From a virus (Duplodnaviria; Heunggongvirae; Uroviricota; Caudoviricetes), in IMG/VR virus record IMGVR_UViG_2690316188_000015: a DNA stretch of 6,926 nt; one strand, 5' to 3'. Below, in pieces: positions 1 to 6,053 of this stretch (the first letter of the stretch is position 1; each line of letters begins with the position of its first letter). Position numbers and translations under genes: made by a program. The notes beneath the pieces were generated by a model that saw nothing but the letters and a program-made list of their open reading frames with translations, ran no database searches and was not told the origin of the DNA.

Positions 1-536
1 AATGCCGAACCACCACGACAGCATGGTACCAGCAGGATCCCCGCGTTATTCGGGATATACGGGAGCAGTTTTTTGGCAATATGTAAGCCCTGGCCGACAC
101 AGCCGTACTGCCCTTTGCTCAGGTCTGCCTTCGGATGATTCAGCGTACTCATATCCTGCACATCATGCAGGCAGTGGTCGGCCGGAATAATATCGTTATA
201 TCTGCATGCAGCCCCACCCGGCGTAACTGTACTGCGGCGCGCCAGCTGTTTAATGCGCGGATCCGGAGCATCGTATGAATCCGGCAGCGGAAGCCCTTCA
301 CCGTAAGCCATGGCATTGGACTGCCCGGCCAGTACGATGACGTAGTACCAATCCGGCTCAGTTGCACCACTGACCACCACATCACCTTCTGCTGTAATCG
401 CCTGCATCAGGGTATAAGGGGTTATGGCCACCGGACTACCAAACGGCTGCCAGCCCTCTTTCAGTTTGTGTGTCAGCTTTTCCGCAAGGTCTGACGGCGA
501 CGCCGCCCTGACAACATCATAATGTTTAAATGTCAT
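1..536 (-). CDS. NanS-p-like protein: N-terminal DUF1737-like region plus SGNH/sialate O-acetylesterase domain; partial, 3' end beyond window
   Basis: ATG at 536-534 preceded by GGAGG (minus strand). Frame is open for 178 codons to the window edge. Translation starts MTFKHYDVVRAASPSDLAEKL and contains the GQSNA motif typical of SGNH esterases. Not in the ORF track because it has no stop in the window. Confidence 0.75.
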   Translation of the reverse strand, partial: MTFKHYDVVRAASPSDLAEKLTHKLKEGWQPFGSPVAITPYTLMQAITAEGDVVVSGATEPDWYYVIVLAGQSNAMAYGEGLPLPDSYDAPDPRIKQLARRSTVTPGGAACRYNDIIPADHCLHDVQDMSTLNHPKADLSKGQYGCVGQGLHIAKKLLPYIPNNAGILLVPCCRGGSA

Positions 537-720
537 TATTCCTCCCGGCCGGGATAGTGTATTAAATCAGATATGGAGTGGGCTGTAGTCCGGAAGCCTG
601 AATGACACACGGGGACTACAGCCCAAGAAATGAAAAAAGGCCACGCAGTTGCGCAGCCTGATAAACCCTGGTTAAAATCCACACGATAACAACACAACAA
701 TATCAGTATCTCATGCTATT

Positions 721-746
721 GCCCGAACCCATTCGGGCATTTTTTA
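721..746 (+). terminator. Rho-independent terminator, plus-strand orientation
   Basis: Hairpin GCCCGAA-CCCA-TTCGGGC (721-738) followed by A then TTTTTT (740-745) on the plus strand. Confidence 0.5.
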
Positions 747-750
747 CCCA

Positions 751-778
751 TAAAAAATGCCCCTCCGGAGAGGGGCAT
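751..778 (-). terminator. Rho-independent terminator, minus-strand orientation, downstream of the TerB-like gene
   Basis: 9-bp stem ATGCCCCTC / GAGGGGCAT with CGGA loop (757-778), followed on the minus strand by TTTTTT. Confidence 0.6.
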
Positions 779-943
779 GTTTGCATGCACATTCTTTTTC
801 TTGCATGGTGCCGGGTGCCTCCCGGTGAATTCAGTATCAGCACCTGAATCCGCGATTATCCCATATACCTGGTTGCTGATCGCCCCTCCGCACAGGGGGA
901 TTCACCATGCAGAAGTGTTTTTAATAAACAGCAAACAAAAAAA

Positions 944-1111
944 TCAAGCATTATGCAGGCTGTTTCTTTTTATCACCGGCCACAGCAATACCACAATGCC
1001 GCAGACCAGCACCCCATCCGCCAGCACCGACATGATTCTGCTGGTGAGATCCACCATCACCACCAGAAACAGCAGGAGTGCAGCCACAGCCAGGCGCAGT
1101 TTTACCGTCAC
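944..1111 (-). CDS. Candidate small hydrophobic membrane peptide (55 aa from GTG), possibly translationally coupled to the upstream TerB-like gene
   Basis: GTG start overlaps the TerB-like stop (GTGA overlap). Translation VTVKLRLAVAALLLFLVVMVDLTSRIMSVLADGVLVCGIVVLLWPVIKRNSLHNA has two hydrophobic segments. Below the ORF-track size cutoff. GC-rich region with several open frames, so it may be spurious. Confidence 0.25.
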   Translation of the reverse strand: MTVKLRLAVAALLLFLVVMVDLTSRIMSVLADGVLVCGIVVLLWPVIKRNSLHNA

Positions 1112-1539
1112 AGGTGATTCTCCAGACGAAGACCCAGAACACCGGCAATCTCTTCCAGCACCTTGCGCTCTTCCGGCTCAATTTCGCCGTCTGCCTCCGC
1201 AATGGCCACCGCCACATCCAGCACATCTTCCGCTTCACGCGTATCGTGTTTCACATCCTCAATCTCGCGTAACGCGGCACGACGACCAATTTTAAAATTG
1301 GTATCCAGCTGACCGATAATGGTTGCGCTAATCGCATTAATTTCCGAGGTAAACGCAGACAACGCAGGCTGATTACGTAAGACCTGTTCGATCTTCGCTT
1401 TCTCGGATGCCTCGCATTCACCATCTGCATAGGCCACCAGGTATGCAGCGTTAATCACCGCCTGTGCCAGATCGCGTTTCTCAAACTTTTTAATTTCCGC
1501 TGCCGCTCTGCGGGTTTTCTTTTTGAAGATTCCAAACAT
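1108..1539 (-). CDS. TerB-like (tellurite-resistance TerB family) protein, 143 aa
   Basis: ATG at 1539-1537 with AGGAAC Shine-Dalgarno 7-8 nt upstream. Protein MFGIFKKK...ADGECEASEKAKIEQVL...EADGEIEPEERKVLEEIAGVLGL has the paired ADG/DG plus acidic-helix organisation of TerB. The ORF-track N-terminal extension (start 1611) lacks an RBS. Confidence 0.75.
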   Translation of the reverse strand: MFGIFKKKTRRAAAEIKKFEKRDLAQAVINAAYLVAYADGECEASEKAKIEQVLRNQPALSAFTSEINAISATIIGQLDTNFKIGRRAALREIEDVKHDTREAEDVLDVAVAIAEADGEIEPEERKVLEEIAGVLGLRLENHL

Positions 1540-1671
1540 CGTGACGTTCCTTTGGGTGGGTGAGCCAACGCCCGGGAGCGATCTGCCCACAGAGAAAGTC
1601 ACACTGACCACTCCGTAAGCTCACCCCCGAAAGGCTCTGTGGTTGATATGCGCCGGGCGTGGCGCAGATAC

Positions 1672-1695
1672 AAAAAAGGCCCGCCGAAGCGAGCC
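1672..1695 (-). terminator. Rho-independent terminator just downstream of the tRNA cluster
   Basis: Minus strand reads GGCUCGC-UUCG-GCGGGCC followed by UUUUUU: 7-bp stem with one G-U pair and a UUCG tetraloop, about 14 nt past the tRNA-Arg 3' end. Confidence 0.6.
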
Positions 1696-1708
1696 TGGAA
1701 AATAAGTG

Positions 1709-1785
1709 TGGCGCGTTGTAGTGGAGTCTAACCACTGACCGATTGCTTAGAAGGCAATTGCTCTGTCCGACTGAGCTAACAACGC
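1709..1785 (-). tRNA. argO: tRNA-Arg (anticodon UCU), 77 nt with encoded CCA
   Basis: Manual fold: acceptor GCGTTGT/ACAACGC, D-stem GCTC/GAGC, anticodon stem ATTGC/GCAAT with loop CTTCTAA, CCA encoded. The T-loop TTAGACT is atypical. The symbol is assigned by position in the phage tRNA trio, not by sequence match. Confidence 0.7.
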
Positions 1786-1798
1786 ATGATGCTGATAA

Positions 1799-1875
1799 TG
1801 GACCGCCATCGGGGACTTGAACCCCGCGCAGCCAGCTTCGAAGGCTGGCGCTCTGTCCCGATGAGCTAATAGCGG
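1799..1875 (-). tRNA. argN: tRNA-Arg (anticodon UCG), 77 nt with encoded CCA
   Basis: Acceptor CCGCTAT/ATGGCGG (one G-U pair), D-stem GCTC/GAGC, anticodon stem CCAGC/GCTGG with loop CTTCGAA, T-arm CGGGG-TTCAAGT-CCCCG, CCA encoded. Symbol assigned by position only. Confidence 0.75.
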
Positions 1876-1884
1876 TATGTAATA

Positions 1885-1960
1885 TGGTGGCCCTTGCTGG
1901 ATTTGAACCAGCGACCTGGCGATTATGAGTCGCTCGCTCTCACCACTGAGCTAAAGGGCC
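1885..1960 (-). tRNA. ileZ: tRNA with CAU anticodon, ileX/ileZ-like (tRNA-Ile2 reading AUA after lysidine modification; formally a Met anticodon), 76 nt
   Basis: Sequence GGCCCTTTAGCTCAGTGGTGAGAGCGAGCGACTCATAATCGCCAGGTCGCTGGTTCAAATCCAGCAAGGGCCACCA closely resembles E. coli tRNA-Ile2 as recalled; canonical cloverleaf with T-loop TTCAAAT. Confidence 0.8.
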
Positions 1961-1988
1961 GAGCCAAAAAATAATAATCAGATGAAAA

Positions 1989-2702
1989 TCAATAATCAAG
2001 CCCTTGCCTGGATACATATCTGTCTGGCGGGAAGCCATAATAGCGGTGAAATACAGAAATAAAGTAGGACCTGCTTGAATAACCGCATTTTTCTGCTATA
2101 GCCTGTCCATATCCATGCCGGGAACATAACATATTTACAGCAACACGCATCCGCTCTTCCAGCAACAAGCGACTGAACATGCCCCCTTCATTTTTCAGTT
2201 TTGTCTTTAACAAACTCTCACTCATATGCAACTGTAGAGCAATCGCACCAAGCGTCCAGCTTGCTGATATATCTGTCTGAATTATCGCCCTGACTTTGGC
2301 ACTTATGCTGGATAAACATCCACTTAAAAACAATGACATCCGTTCATCTGTTTCAAACAGAGACAGGCAGGCCATCATAAGAAACATATCCGTGGCCTCT
2401 CCGGAAAATCCCTGGCTGGTAATTAAAGCCGCAGCCAACGCAGGATTGTTGGGTTCCAGCAACAGGTAAAGCGGAATGTCAGTCAGACGAGTCCTCGTCA
2501 GCTTATGCTGACTTTCCAGATATTGACTTACGACGGATTCGCTTATATCGACAATTTTAACTTTGCCATAATGCATAAGGAAAAGCTCCCTGATGCATTT
2601 GGTGGCCAGAACAACTGAGCCTGGCTTAAGTGACAACGTATCCTTTTCAAGAAAAATATTAATTGGGGAGCAAACCATGATAACTGAACAGACAACAGCC
2701 AT
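1989..2702 (-). CDS. AraC/XylS-family transcriptional regulator (AppY/YdeO/GadX-like subfamily), 237 aa, intact copy
   Basis: C-terminal region has both AraC-type helix-turn-helix motifs (WTLGAIALQLHMSESLLKTKLKNEGG... and AIAEKCGYSSRSYFISVFHRYYGFPP). N-terminus MAVVCSV resembles AppY-type regulators. Low GC. Confidence 0.85.
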   Translation of the reverse strand: MAVVCSVIMVCSPINIFLEKDTLSLKPGSVVLATKCIRELFLMHYGKVKIVDISESVVSQYLESQHKLTRTRLTDIPLYLLLEPNNPALAAALITSQGFSGEATDMFLMMACLSLFETDERMSLFLSGCLSSISAKVRAIIQTDISASWTLGAIALQLHMSESLLKTKLKNEGGMFSRLLLEERMRVAVNMLCSRHGYGQAIAEKCGYSSRSYFISVFHRYYGFPPDRYVSRQGLDY

Positions 2703-2737
2703 TATAATTTTACTTTCATTAGCAATTGGTTAGCTCA

Positions 2738-2768
2738 ATTATAGCCCCAAAAGGTAAATTATCATCAA
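2738..2768 (-). promoter_or_regulatory. Possible sigma70 promoter for the AraC-family gene: -35 TTGATG, 19-bp spacer, -10 TATAAT
   Basis: Perfect TATAAT on the minus strand about 36 nt upstream of the ATG. The -35 is weak and the spacer is long. An identical copy lies at 4129-4159 upstream of the truncated paralog. Confidence 0.3.
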
Positions 2769-2821
2769 CACATAAGCAAAGGACTGACAGGTGTCGCCCC
2801 CCCACCAGCCGCCCATTCACC

Positions 2822-2850
2822 ACAAATAAAAAGCCTTCAGGACTGAAGGC
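2822..2850 (-). terminator. Rho-independent terminator overlapping the stop codon of the 65-aa ORF
   Basis: Minus strand reads GCCTTCA-GTCC-TGAAGGC followed by TTTTTATTT. Confidence 0.6.
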
Positions 2851-3034
2851 GTCTGTAACAACCGCACTGATAGTCTGCCAGACCCGCCATAACAAGCTGG
2901 GTCAGTATTAACTGGCAGCGTTCGCGTGAAAGGTAAGTATTCTGCGCAATCTCCCCGACTGTCGCCGGTTCGGTAACGCTTAATTCATCAAACACAACTC
3001 TGGCGGTTTCTGTCATATCCTGCTGTTTCAGCAT
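2837..3034 (-). CDS. Small hypothetical protein (65 aa, or 59 aa from the second ATG), possible helix-turn-helix DNA-binding protein; copy A
   Basis: ORF with AAGGG about 9 nt upstream of the ATG. The only difference from copy B in this ORF is a synonymous change (GTT vs GTC Val at codon 20). Segment TVGEIAQNTYLSRERCQLILTQL is HTH-like. Function unknown. Confidence 0.5.
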   Translation of the reverse strand: MLKQQDMTETARVVFDELSVTEPATVGEIAQNTYLSRERCQLILTQLVMAGLADYQCGCYRRLQS

Positions 3035-3158
3035 GTCTTTTTACCCTTTCCGGTTAACGTGACATACCAATAACTCTTGTCTAAAAAGCCAGCAAGATAA
3101 AAAGCCAGTATTCACGACCACCAGCGTGTTTACTGTACTGCACCAGGTTTACAGGTAC

Positions 3159-3180
3159 AAAAAAACCGCTCAGCGGCGGG
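3159..3180 (-). terminator. Weak candidate terminator in the tail of repeat copy A
   Basis: Minus strand has a short CCGC/GCGG stem followed by TTTTTTT. The homologous site in copy B has a 5-bp stem. Confidence 0.35.
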
Positions 3181-3312
3181 TTTAAGTTGTGTGGCGAAGT
3201 AACCACTCTTAACACACTAATAGCATTTTTGTTATAACACAAGTAGCTCATTCAGTATTTTTAGAATCTTGACTTTCTTAAGCACGGAGAACTCTGAATA
3301 CCAAACATAAAA

Positions 3313-3546
3313 TCAATTATCTTCCAGGCCGGATGCTATCAACGAAAGCCTCTCAAAAAACGCTGTAGCAGCCTTGTCCAAAGTTGAATAAGTACTGTAT
3401 TCTCCGTGTTCGGGACCAACCACTACCCATGGTCGTCTTTTTGGGATTCGGGACTTCTCAGAAATCACTGTTCCAGATATACCAATATCAATTGTTACAC
3501 CTGTTATTATTTTCTCTTCATCTCTTTCCCTGAACTCAATTGCCAT
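3313..3546 (-). CDS. Hypothetical 77-aa ORF in the unique segment between the two repeat copies; possibly a gene remnant
   Basis: ORF-track ORF starting 19 bp inside the unique segment. No Shine-Dalgarno (A-rich upstream). No family recognised. Confidence 0.25.
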   Translation of the reverse strand: MAIEFRERDEEKIITGVTIDIGISGTVISEKSRIPKRRPWVVVGPEHGEYSTYSTLDKAATAFFERLSLIASGLEDN

Positions 3547-4093
3547 AAATGCCGTTTTTTTTTATGAACATGCCCCCTTCATTTTTCAGTTTTGTCTTTA
3601 ACAAACTCTCACTCATATGCAACTGTAGAGCAATCGCACCAAGCGTCCAGCTTGCTGATATATCTGTCTGAATTATCGCCCTGACTTTGGCACTTATGCT
3701 GGATAAACATCCACTTAAAAACAATGACATCCGTTCATCTGTTTCAAACAGAGACAGGCAGGCCATCATAAGAAACATATCCGTGGCCTCTCCGGAAAAT
3801 CCCTGGCTGGTAATTAAAGCCGCAGCCAACGCAGGATTGTTGGGTTCCAGCAACAGGTAAAGCGGAATGTCAGTCAGACGAGTCCTCGTCAGCTTATGCT
3901 GACTTTCCAGATATTGACTTACGACGGATTCGCTTATATCGACAATTTTAACTTTGCCATAATGCATAAGGAAAAGCTCCCTGATGCATTTGGTGGCCAG
4001 AACAACTGAGCCTGGCTTAAGTGACAACGTATCCTTTTCAAGAAAAATATTAATTGGGGAGCAAACCATGATAACTGAACAGACAACAGCCAT
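3536..4093 (-). pseudogene. Truncated paralog of the AraC-family regulator: N-terminal domain plus first HTH, residues 1-176 identical to copy A, then 9 unrelated codons and a stop
   Basis: Identical to copy A through ...KLKNEGGMF, then diverges exactly at the repeat boundary (3565) into IKKNGIYGN-stop. The second HTH is missing. Confidence 0.7.
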
Positions 4094-4212
4094 TATAATT
4101 TTACTTTCATTAGCAATTGGTTAGCTCAATTATAGCCCCAAAAGGTAAATTATCATCAACACATAAGCAAAGGACTGACAGGTGTCGCCCCCCCACCAGC
4201 CGCCCATTCACC

Positions 4213-4241
4213 ACAAATAAAAAGCCTTCAGGACTGAAGGC
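4213..4241 (-). terminator. Rho-independent terminator after the 65-aa ORF, copy B
   Basis: Identical to the terminator at 2822-2850. Confidence 0.6.
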
Positions 4242-4425
4242 GTCTGTAACAACCGCACTGATAGTCTGCCAGACCCGCCATAACAAGCTGGGTCAGTATT
4301 AACTGGCAGCGTTCGCGTGAAAGGTAAGTATTCTGCGCAATCTCCCCGACTGTCGCCGGTTCGGTGACGCTTAATTCATCAAACACAACTCTGGCGGTTT
4401 CTGTCATATCCTGCTGTTTCAGCAT
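4228..4425 (-). CDS. Small hypothetical protein (65 aa), copy B; protein identical to copy A
   Basis: Same ORF as 2837-3034 within the duplicated core. Confidence 0.5.
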   Translation of the reverse strand: MLKQQDMTETARVVFDELSVTEPATVGEIAQNTYLSRERCQLILTQLVMAGLADYQCGCYRRLQS

Positions 4426-4548
4426 GTCTTTTTACCCTTTCCGGTTAACGTGACACACCAATAACTCTTGCCGAAAAAGCCAGCAAGCTGAAAGACCTGT
4501 ATTAATAACTACCAGCACATTTAACGCACTGCGCTACTTTGCGGGCAC

Positions 4549-4571
4549 AAAAAACCCGCTCAGAGGCGGGG
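4549..4571 (-). terminator. Candidate rho-independent terminator between the CPBP gene and repeat copy B
   Basis: Minus strand reads CCCGC-CTCTGA-GCGGG followed by TTTTTTG, about 150 nt downstream of the CPBP stop. Confidence 0.5.
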
Positions 4572-4711
4572 TCAAGCTATGCGGCGAAATAACCACTCTT
4601 AACAGCATACCTGATTTTTTACGTACGTAAATGCTTTGCCGTGCATATTTTTCATGCAAATGTCACGTCCTGCTATTTTTCAGTCTTATAAATTTAAAAC
4701 CATAGAAAAAA

Positions 4712-5530
4712 TCAATTATGTTTTAAAAATGGATAGGTAAAGAATAACAAGTGACACAGATTCAAACCAAAATGGAAAAGGGTGGCAACCCACAAACGCC
4801 CACTCCACATCCATGACAATCCATACACAACACCAGATAACGTGGCAAATAATACAAGTAAAGCACCACCTGAATAGTGATAAAAACCAAACAACAAAGC
4901 CGCCACAATTAATGCAACCAATGGAGACGTTACTTCTGATAGCCGTGATTGAATATACCCTCTAAATAATGATTCCTCTGCCAGAGACACAAAAAACAAA
5001 TTAGCCAATATAAACTCTGGCAACCACTCAGGAAAATGAATCTCTGGCTTTAATCCACCAAAAAAAACAGCCAAAAACAGGATAAGAGGAACAGAGAGCG
5101 ACAGAGCCCCCCACTTCCACAAAGACACTTCTGATTTTACTTCTTTTTTAAACAAAGAAGATGTACACAGGACTAACAAAAATGGCACCAGCGCTTTATC
5201 AAAATTAAAATACATTGTATAGGGAGTACTTTGAGGGCCAACAGTAACAGAATTTAGCACTACAGGATTGTGAAACCCTGGCCATAGATGGAAAGATAAT
5301 GCTATGGCTGATAAAACTATGCCAACTTCATATATAGATTTAGCCCAGGCGTTATATTTCCAGTTGAACTTCAAAATAATAAAAAAAACGATTGTAGCAA
5401 CAAAAAATAACACCGACCAATCAATAATATCATTAAGCACAGCCAGGACAACAGACACCGTCAACAATGAAAAAGCCACTACCTTATGCCAACTGAGAGT
5501 TGACAGTGACAGTACTAACACAATCCACAT
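4712..5530 (-). CDS. CPBP-family (CAAX protease / Abi-domain, PF02517-like) intramembrane metalloprotease, about 272 aa
   Basis: ATG at 5530-5528 with AGGAG and a 5-nt spacer (the ORF-track GTG at 5536 is rejected). Polytopic hydrophobic protein with all three CPBP motifs: EESLFR (EExxxR), FGFYH (FxxxH) and HFGLN (HxxxN). Low GC, roughly 38% by eye. Confidence 0.8.
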   Translation of the reverse strand: MWIVLVLSLSTLSWHKVVAFSLLTVSVVLAVLNDIIDWSVLFFVATIVFFIILKFNWKYNAWAKSIYEVGIVLSAIALSFHLWPGFHNPVVLNSVTVGPQSTPYTMYFNFDKALVPFLLVLCTSSLFKKEVKSEVSLWKWGALSLSVPLILFLAVFFGGLKPEIHFPEWLPEFILANLFFVSLAEESLFRGYIQSRLSEVTSPLVALIVAALLFGFYHYSGGALLVLFATLSGVVYGLSWMWSGRLWVATLFHFGLNLCHLLFFTYPFLKHN

Positions 5531-5681
5531 AAGCACTCCTTTTATTTAATGATGAAGATTGATTATCAATATTTTCAATTCACCAGGCAACATTTTATCT
5601 ACCTTCCACAATACATGACCATCAAAAAATAAACATGTTAATTATAAACACAGAAAACATAACCCTCATCACTATATATCC
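5531..5681 (-). promoter_or_regulatory. AT-rich region immediately downstream of Q; expected location of the Q-dependent late promoter and Q-utilisation site
   Basis: Positional inference from lambdoid phage organisation. Several -10-like hexamers are present (TATAAT, TAAAAT) but no element could be assigned confidently. Confidence 0.3.
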
Positions 5682-6053
5682 CTACCGCATATCCATATCT
5701 AACCGGACATTCAGAGCCATAAGCATTCCTTCAATAATACCTTCCGCTTTATAAAGCCTTTTACCAATAAGCCCATCAGAACATCTATGCTTACGTGCAA
5801 GAGCCATAAATGTCATTCCACCTACGTAATAATCCACCAACAAATCGTGCAAATACTGATTATTCTTGTTTAATCGTGCCATACAACCACAAATTATCAT
5901 GGCGTCATCATCAGAACACTGAGGACGTGATTTCACTTTAGTCGGGATTAATCCTTTAAAACCAGCAGCTATCGAGGGCCATGTTACATCTTCATGATTA
6001 TTTGCTGCCCATGCCCCCCATCGCTCAAGAACCATCTGGATATCACGCGCCAT
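5682..6053 (-). CDS. Q: Late-gene antiterminator Q (QuuD/phage-82-type), 123 aa from the ATG
   Basis: Protein [25 protein letters not shown]...[14 protein letters not shown]... closely resembles E. coli prophage QuuD-type Q as recalled. GAGGTGG Shine-Dalgarno before the ATG at 6053; start overlaps the end of rusA. Confidence 0.85.

Follow-up and report, generated by a model that had tools for sequence, protein, structure and literature searches.

A putative promoter-to-terminator ileZ-argN-argO tRNA cassette with a rare argO allele in a lambdoid Escherichia coli prophage region

Lambdoid phages commonly carry tRNA genes just 3′ of the antiterminator gene Q (PMC3636060). The Sakai Stx2 prophage Sp5 has such a set, ileZ2, argN2 and argO2, and both the transcription start site (TSS) that drives these tRNAs, reported by Sy et al., and that of the Sp5 late promoter pR′ have been mapped, the latter by dRNA-seq (PMC7547250). 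A moron insertion site with convergent small RNAs (sRNAs) has been described for Sakai Sp3, 4, 5, 9, 10, 11, 15 and 17, and the anti-GcvB sRNA AgvB was described by Tree et al. in 2014 (PMC4104026). Among the papers covered by our literature search, none uses the names ileZ, argN and argO.

Here we analyse a 6,926-nt stretch of tailed-phage DNA (IMG/VR record IMGVR_UViG_2690316188_000015; the window) that carries a tRNA trio of this kind, with other genes where Stx2 phages carry their toxin. Coordinates refer to the window, and features lie on the minus strand unless stated otherwise.

The tRNA trio and its transcription signals

Run over the whole window, ARAGORN called exactly three tRNA genes, all on the minus strand: a CAU tRNA of the Ile2 type, ileZ (1885..1960; Rfam 72.5 bits), a tRNA-Arg(UCG), argN (1799..1875; 56.0 bits), and a tRNA-Arg(UCU), argO (1709..1785; 66.7 bits). 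The Rfam tRNA model has a gathering score of 29 bits, and with E-values of 7e-15 to 2.5e-10 the three calls are far above chance level. ARAGORN and Rfam both give the anticodons CAU, UCG and UCU in tandem, in that order and on one strand. Each gene encodes its CCA end, and the stems are paired throughout, except that the CAU tRNA has a mismatch, A27xC43, and tRNA-Arg(UCG) a wobble pair, U5oG68.

The trio is 93.75% identical to ileZ2/argN2/argO2 of Sp5 over 304 nt, a match that runs from just 5′ of the first tRNA to just past the hairpin 3′ of the third, and it also aligns with Stx2a_1447, where the genes are annotated ileZ, argN and argO, and with phiSTEC1575-Stx2k. The original prediction of three tRNAs in the ileZ-argN-argO order is thus borne out, anticodons included. 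By this similarity, the stretch 1671-1999 of the minus strand is a copy of the ileZ-argN-argO cassette known from Stx-type lambdoid E. coli prophages. In the window and its relatives, the cassette is positioned 3′ of Q and pR′ and 5′ of the stx/moron slot, nanS-p and the lysis genes. We considered and rejected a remnant attachment site, as the trio is internal, lies by Q, has its own promoter and terminator and occupies the same place in hundreds of prophages.

A promoter scan and a conserved motif mark a sigma-70-like promoter, TTGATT-N17-TATTAT (1971..1999), whose −10 hexamer ends 10 nt 5′ of the mature ileZ end. Our IMG/VR survey used the matches listed, which were anchored on the 3′ half of argO and are not a random sample; among these, TTGnnn-N16-18-TATTAT stands at the promoter position in 119 of 126 sites. 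The motif is kept although the DNA further 5′ is unrelated between sites: in some it holds an AraC gene, in others a methylase, and in others it is the Q-proximal region. At the other end lies an intrinsic terminator, GGCUCGC-UUCG-GCGGGCC followed by U6 (1671..1696, stem 1696..1677), with a folding energy of −14.6 kcal/mol (z = −4.4). Stx2 phages keep the same terminator in the interval from argO to stx2A. Together, these signals indicate that the cassette is probably an autonomous promoter-to-terminator unit rather than an appendage to the cargo beside it. The interval first singled out, 1672-1960, takes in the three genes and the terminator and leaves the promoter outside.

The CAU tRNA is 89.5% identical to K-12 ileX, compared with 70.1% to the elongator metT, and PGAP annotates the identical gene in relatives as tRNA-Ile. 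It also has the C4:G69 and C5:G68 pairs, which are major identity elements of E. coli TilS (PMC11947777, citing earlier work). On sequence grounds, the Ile2-like call made originally is well supported, and ileZ is expected to be modified to lysidine and to read AUA. The A27xC43 mismatch is invariant among distinct trios and is therefore a family trait of ileZ, not damage.

A20 and C35 are major identity elements of E. coli ArgRS. In argN and argO alike, a D-loop with ...GGACA puts A at position 20, and C35 is present. In addition, argN has C1:G72, U5oG68 and an unusual U73; the K-12 tRNA set is not known to hold a tRNA-Arg(UCG) counterpart of it. We predict that argN reads CGA and, probably, CGG, and that argO reads AGA and AGG.

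The late region on either side of the cassette

All protein-coding and tRNA genes of the window lie on the minus strand, and their order in the 5′ to 3′ direction starts with the 3′ end of a DUF968 gene, RusA and the antiterminator Q (5682..6053; Pfam Phage_antitermQ, E = 4.5e-52; 80.7% identical to Sp5 Q). From Q to the tRNAs the DNA is 36-47% GC, against 50-57% in the flanks, in agreement with the AT-rich cargo originally described there. The first cargo gene, itself AT-rich, encodes a CPBP/Rce1-like intramembrane protease (4712..5530; Pfam Rce1-like, E = 1.4e-19; PHROG 13291), and RM13514 has a homologue with the same annotation. CPBP lies between Q and pR′, with promoter-like sites of its own in the scan.

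The Sp5 pR′ (−35 TTTACG, −10 TATCAT) aligns to 4631..4604 of the window and is followed by a conserved leader (4604..4538). By this homology, pR′ with its leader (copy A) would occupy 4538..4631, with the −35 hexamer TTTACG at 4631..4626 and the −10 hexamer TATGCT at 4609..4604. The published TSS would fall 7 nt after the −10 hexamer if there is a 142-nt shift between versions of the Sp5 record, which we assume from the stx2A start in the older version. Since CPBP is 5′ of pR′, it would lie outside the late operon as a separate unit.

The 3′ side of pR′ holds a 65-aa ORF, AraC, the tRNAs and the slot genes, and part of this series is present twice. The ORF list and comparison give a first 65-aa ORF (copy A, 4228..4425), followed by a truncated AraC copy A (3536..4093) with the first 176 codons and then unrelated sequence, interrupted at a junction at 3564/3565. 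A remnant ORF (3313..3546) corresponds to the last 77 aa of a PHROG 8498 protein of 205 aa. Alignment then identifies a second pR′ leader (copy B, 3148..3214) that has lost its hexamers, and a second 65-aa ORF (copy B, 2837..3034; PHROG 331, weak TrmB-like match in Pfam) runs into a terminator-like hairpin at 2850..2833. In relatives, the 65-aa ORF is kept 5′ of AraC or of the methylase. The full-length AraC-family regulator (1989..2702; Pfam HTH_AraC/HTH_18) is YdeO/GadX-like and lies immediately 5′ of the tRNA promoter; its NCBIfam YdeO match (E = 4e-31) is below the curated cutoff, and a promoter-like site of its own at 2765..2738 scores 10/12. The gene is presumably ‘Psr-like’, in view also of its NCBIfam similarity to YdeO/GadX.

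The duplication goes back to a point, 3564/3565, at which two prophage lineages meet in the window. From 6926 to 3565 the sequence is of the O145:H28 RM13514 type (99.3% match), and from 3563 to 1 it is of the type of L019, L010 and NE 1092-2 (99.7-100% match). Through this fusion one AraC copy is cut short and a direct repeat of 1,391 nt arises. A search of IMG/VR, GTDB representative genomes and complete E. coli genomes returned no match to the junction, which reflects either a rearrangement specific to the strain or an error of assembly; the tRNA finding is unaffected.

On the other side of the tRNAs, alignment to Sp5 stops at 1661 and resumes at 928, at the start of STnc100, with stx2A-stx2B between these points in Sp5. 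The window has a TerB-family, TciA-like gene here (1108..1539; Pfam TerB PF05099, E = 2.9e-16, 60.2 bits against a gathering cutoff of 24.4; PHROG 632, E = 1.7e-69), followed by a gene for a TciB-like DUF3927 small membrane protein (944..1111; Pfam DUF3927, E = 4.9e-16; PHROG 1470). This break in homology indicates that TerB and DUF3927 stand, as a cassette, in place of stx2AB, and no tblastn match to Stx2A or Stx2B was found in the window. Both the TerB-like gene after the tRNAs and the replacement of the toxin by other genes had been correctly anticipated. Homologues of the pair in phage JLK-2012 are annotated tciA and tciB.

The downstream edge of the slot is an STnc100-family RNA element (746..939; Rfam 142.7 bits), which is also found 3′ of stx2B in Sp5. 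Convergent with it on the plus strand is AgvB (684..745; Rfam RF02702, 96.5 bits), identical to the RF02702 consensus at 62 of 62 positions. A nanS-p-type esterase gene, recognised by its DUF1737 N-terminus (Pfam) and listed in relatives as a carbohydrate esterase of the SASA family, leaves the window with its 5′ part at 1..536.

The original prediction implied that such an arrangement was unusual, and this does not hold. A trio at 80% coverage or more is present in 2,284 of 5,426 complete E. coli genomes (42%), in up to 13 places per genome and 7,585 places in total. Among the listed IMG/VR matches, 89 sites had at least 1.5 kb after argO; their slots hold TerB with or without DUF3927 (30), nothing, with nanS-p following directly (22), Stx (10) or other sequence (27). 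In an O157:H7 NE 1092-2 prophage at dusA, the trio is 100% identical, with the same AraC, TerB and DUF3927 neighbours in the PGAP annotation. In this sample no other occupant of the slot is as common as TerB with or without DUF3927, and the arrangement is ordinary and already annotated. The tRNA trio is accordingly no mark of a ‘former Stx phage’, toxin genes being a minority occupant of the slot. The region as a whole is a standard lambdoid late-regulatory module of Q, pR′, morons, tRNA cassette, moron slot, sRNAs and nanS-p, and beyond correct annotation it has little importance.

Codon supply, constraint and the argO allele

The explanation we favour, with a probability of about 78%, is a self-contained cassette in the late operon that provides a general codon supply and that, in this copy, has a weakened argO. 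The cassette would lie within the Q-dependent late operon, between pR′ on its 5′ side and the moron slot, nanS-p and lysis genes on its 3′ side. In a lysogen it would be transcribed from its own promoter, and after induction Q-modified polymerase and replicated copies would add further transcription. RNase P and 3′ processing would free the tRNAs, and TilS would turn C34 of ileZ into lysidine so that AUA is read. With argO reading AGA and AGG, and argN reading CGA and probably CGG, the trio would supply more of the decoders that E. coli keeps scarce. The benefit would fall to phage late genes and AT-rich acquired genes in general, rather than to the neighbouring cargo in particular. The terminator would shield the slot genes from the tRNA promoter, and through this insulation their expression would come mainly from Q-dependent read-through, as with stx2. 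A weakened argO would be tolerated thanks to the redundancy that host argU and further prophage copies provide. In this account we observed the genes and their homologies, the conservation of the promoter and terminator, the limits of the slot, how frequent the alleles are and the use of codons; expression, modification, charging and any effect on fitness are inferred.

To place codon use on a common scale, we counted ATA, AGA, AGG and CGA per 1,000 codons, taking as host background only 40 K-12 core genes (15,080 codons), which have 7.7 per 1,000 and define 1.0-fold. The 28 late genes of the NE 1092-2 prophage, whose trio is identical, have 19.5 per 1,000 (2.5-fold, p = 3e-23), a modest enrichment. 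Higher values are seen for stx2AB (61 per 1,000, 8.0-fold, p = 4.7e-15) and the effector gene nleG7 (65 per 1,000, 8.4-fold, p = 2.1e-9), and TerB plus DUF3927 have 20 per 1,000 (2.6-fold, p = 0.07). For CGA, which is cognate to argN, no gene set shows an enrichment (3.5 per 1,000 in late genes versus 3.2); CGG is enriched about 4-fold in late genes (15.4 versus 3.9 per 1,000). Rare-codon supply is a reasonable general rationale for ileZ and argO.

It had originally been proposed that the tRNAs support the AT-rich cargo, and one could go further and suppose that the trio is kept specifically for CPBP and AraC as a local cargo-plus-tRNA unit. The full AraC copy fits this: it directly abuts the tRNA promoter, and with 5 ATA, 1 AGA and 5 AGG in 237 codons (46 per 1,000) it has a 6.0-fold excess (p = 3e-6). 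ATA makes up one third of the Ile codons in this gene, and AGR 46% of the Arg codons. CPBP, by contrast, shows no significant enrichment, reaching only 18 per 1,000 (2.4-fold, p = 0.06) with three Arg codons in all, and CGA is absent from both cargo genes. Moreover, the cassette comes with a promoter and a terminator of its own, CPBP belongs to a separate unit 5′ of pR′, and tRNAs act in trans, which makes physical linkage needless. Nor is the neighbourhood constant: among the listed IMG/VR matches, the gene 5′ of the trio is the methylase in 56 of 108 sites, AraC in 21 and Q directly in 12. In this sample the trio lies equally beside neighbours that are not AT-rich, which points to no association with how many rare codons the genes from Q to the trio contain. 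The tie between the tRNAs and the AT-rich genes next to them is weak and unspecific, and we consider a dedicated local unit unlikely.

General codon supply, the reading we prefer, does not account equally well for all three members, as argN is decaying in many prophages. Across 62 distinct trio sequences, cloverleaf pairs are kept in 96.6% of cells, and constraint differs strongly between the genes. ileZ is frozen, with 9 of 76 columns variable and only one of these varying in at least three sequences. argO is mostly conserved (16 of 77 columns), its stems are paired at 99-100%, and at pair 50:64 a compensated C:G to G:C swap occurs in 13 sequences. In argN, 48 of 77 columns vary, acceptor and T-stem cells are unpaired, and an arm has been replaced in 8 distinct trios; ARAGORN misses it in 25 of 134 IMG/VR sites among the matches listed.

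This pattern could also mean that the cassette, or at least argN together with the argO allele of the window, is a decaying and functionless hitch-hiker between essential elements of the late operon. The state of argN speaks for it, as do A56 in the argO of the window (below) and G37 in argO2 of Sp5, and with up to 13 copies per genome each copy would be redundant. A cassette without function is nevertheless hard to reconcile with a near-invariant ileZ, a conserved promoter and terminator, the compensated stem change and nearly complete stem pairing of argO, and three intact cloverleaves in the window. We regard hitch-hiking as improbable.

The argO of the window pairs completely in all four stems and has U33 in its 7-nt anticodon loop as well as G18 and G19. 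Its T-loop is TTAGACT, as first noted, with A at position 56, and thus departs from the canonical T54-T55-C56 and its C56-G19 pairing. Most other argO copies, those of Stx2 phages included, have TTCGAAT and others have TTCGACT, from which TTAGACT differs solely by C56A. The exact A56 allele occurs in 76 of the 2,288 complete E. coli genomes with argO, and genomes with this allele also have several other copies of the trio. Among the listed IMG/VR matches it occurs at 17 loci, with TerB on the 3′ side in 16 and DUF3927 too in 15; the exception, L012, has neither gene within 4 kb, in a downstream flank of 3.4 kb. A56 is a derived minority allele, a rare point change in argO.

C56 is near-universal in tRNAs, forms the elbow pair with G19 and is required by T-loop modification enzymes. 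As C56A removes both the Watson-Crick partner of G19 and the base that these enzymes need, argO is probably weakened here, and the allele is plausibly hypomorphic, in line with the impairment originally suggested. The Rfam scores barely differ between A56 and C56 (66.7 versus 67.3 bits) and are uninformative on impairment, and MFE folding of argO gave no cloverleaf for either allele. A linked C16-to-U change in the D-loop was considered as compensation for A56 and rejected, as it lies away from position 19 and is also found in 8 sites whose T-arm is canonical. Within the favoured explanation, a weakened argO tolerated through redundancy is the most likely reading of the allele. A56 might instead be a selected elbow variant that is charged and decodes AGA and AGG while escaping readers of the G19:C56 elbow or of the T-loop, which we judge very improbable. 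That proposal cites fixation of the allele in a prophage lineage that always has TerB plus DUF3927, and its unaltered presence in 76 complete genomes and at 15 of the 17 A56 loci among the matches listed. In either case, the C56A argO would be a natural, testable tRNA elbow mutation that segregates in E. coli prophages.

Counter-defence by tRNAs has been reported for virulent phages. By analogy, the trio might replace host tRNAs that are cut or depleted by anticodon nucleases or colicins, and all three tRNAs do decode via host-scarce isoacceptors, with PHROGs for TerB and DUF3927 annotated ‘tellurite resistance’ and ‘resistance to colicin’; yet this is extremely unlikely, since ileZ and argO have exactly the anticodon loops of host ileX and argU (CUCAUAA and CUUCUAA) and thus lack the changes expected for nuclease evasion, the promoter is of a constitutive type in prophages, and PADLOC gave no match for any window protein and hence no support for a defence reading of CPBP, TerB or DUF3927.

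Comparison with known systems

Gene by gene, ileZ shares with K-12 ileX the anticodon loop, the T-stem, the D-stem and the C4:G69 and C5:G68 pairs, but has U6:A67 and the A27xC43 mismatch where ileX has C6:G67 and G27oU43. argO shares with K-12 argU the anticodon loop, A20, G73 and the overall cloverleaf, yet the two are only 68.8% identical, and the window copy is without C56. The TerB and DUF3927 pair falls into PHROGs annotated ‘tellurite resistance’ and ‘TciB-like’ and in this resembles TciA/TciB of phage P1-like elements; unlike these, it lies behind a terminator in a late operon.

The slot closely follows the moron site of the Sakai prophages. As in that site, it is bounded by the tRNA terminator and then by STnc100 with an antisense anti-sRNA, which is AgvB in the window and AsxR in Sp5; otherwise nothing material distinguishes the two, and the window has the AgvB-type version with no toxin. 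The cassette is nearest to that of Sp5 and Stx2a_1447, with which it shares the anticodons, their order, the 9-nt and 13-nt spacers, the terminator and the promoter motif. It differs in having TerB and DUF3927 instead of stx 3′ of the tRNAs, and on its 5′ side an AraC-type gene where clusters of the Sp5/Stx2a_1447 type have a methylase or tR′. Within the tRNAs, argN of the window has U5oG68 and a TTCAAGT T-loop, and argO has a GTGG/CCAC T-stem variant together with C56A.

Joining of two prophage lineages

Two prophage lineages are joined in the window at 3564/3565, where one AraC copy is cut off, and a direct repeat of 1,391 nt (2174-3214 and 3565-4604) derives from this join. The junction has no match in 5,426 complete E. 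coli genomes, IMG/VR or the GTDB representative genomes; either the rearrangement is private, or the assembly is chimeric here. A second IMG/VR locus (L023, UViG_2695420847_000016) joins the same two lineages at another point, and contains two copies of the ileZ-argN-argO tRNA trio ~1.9 kb apart (about 3579-3828 and about 5500-5749). One L023 trio is canonical; the other carries A56, the TTAGACT T-loop allele found in the window.

Late-promoter leaders and neighboring genes

The minus-strand leader of the late promoter pR′ is present twice, as copies A and B. When aligned with the mapped pR′ of Sp5, the Sakai Stx2 prophage, copy A (4538-4631) keeps the -35 and -10 hexamers, both of which are lost from copy B (3148-3214); this places the CPBP gene between the antiterminator gene Q and pR′. 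A terminator-like hairpin followed by a U-run lies within the first 60 nt of the pR′ transcript (4570..4555 in copy A). The same leader hairpin is present in Sp5, yet the Sp5 terminator tR′ was mapped at +258.

The full-length AraC-family gene (1989-2702, minus strand) owns the best promoter-like match of the window (2765..2738). Over its full length, the protein most closely resembles YdeO and GadX, two regulators of acid resistance (NCBIfam, scores below cutoffs), and may be a member of the prophage Psr/PatE regulator group. On the same strand, a 77-aa ORF (3313-3546) preserves just the C-terminal end of a PHROG 8498 protein of 205 aa and bears an extreme rare-codon load, with ATA, AGA, AGG and CGA reaching 130 per 1000 codons.

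Decay and variation within the tRNA trio

Across prophages, the tRNA of the trio that is in decay is argN (1799-1875, minus strand; alignment columns 86-163). In our alignment of the 62 distinct trios, 48 of its 77 columns are variable. Eight distinct trios have the argN D and anticodon arms swapped for unrelated sequence; ARAGORN misses argN in 25 of 134 sites. Its cognate codon, CGA, shows no enrichment in phage genes; CGG is enriched ~4-fold in late genes. In the reference Stx2 prophage Sp5, argO2 (2441-2517 of locus L009) has G37 in place of A37, giving the anticodon loop CUUCUGA, and G37 recurs in 5 of 135 IMG/VR trio sites. In ileZ (1885-1960, minus strand), an A27×C43 mismatch opens the anticodon stem and is shared without exception by the 62 distinct trios, whereas K-12 ileX has G27oU43 at this pair.

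Small RNAs downstream of the toxin slot

The downstream edge of the slot, the position taken by stx2AB in Sp5, is marked by two convergent elements: the anti-GcvB sRNA AgvB (684-745, plus strand; 62/62 identity with the Rfam consensus) and an STnc100-family element (746-939, minus strand). Sakai Sp5 has the same layout, with an STnc100/AsxR pair located 3′ of stx2B.
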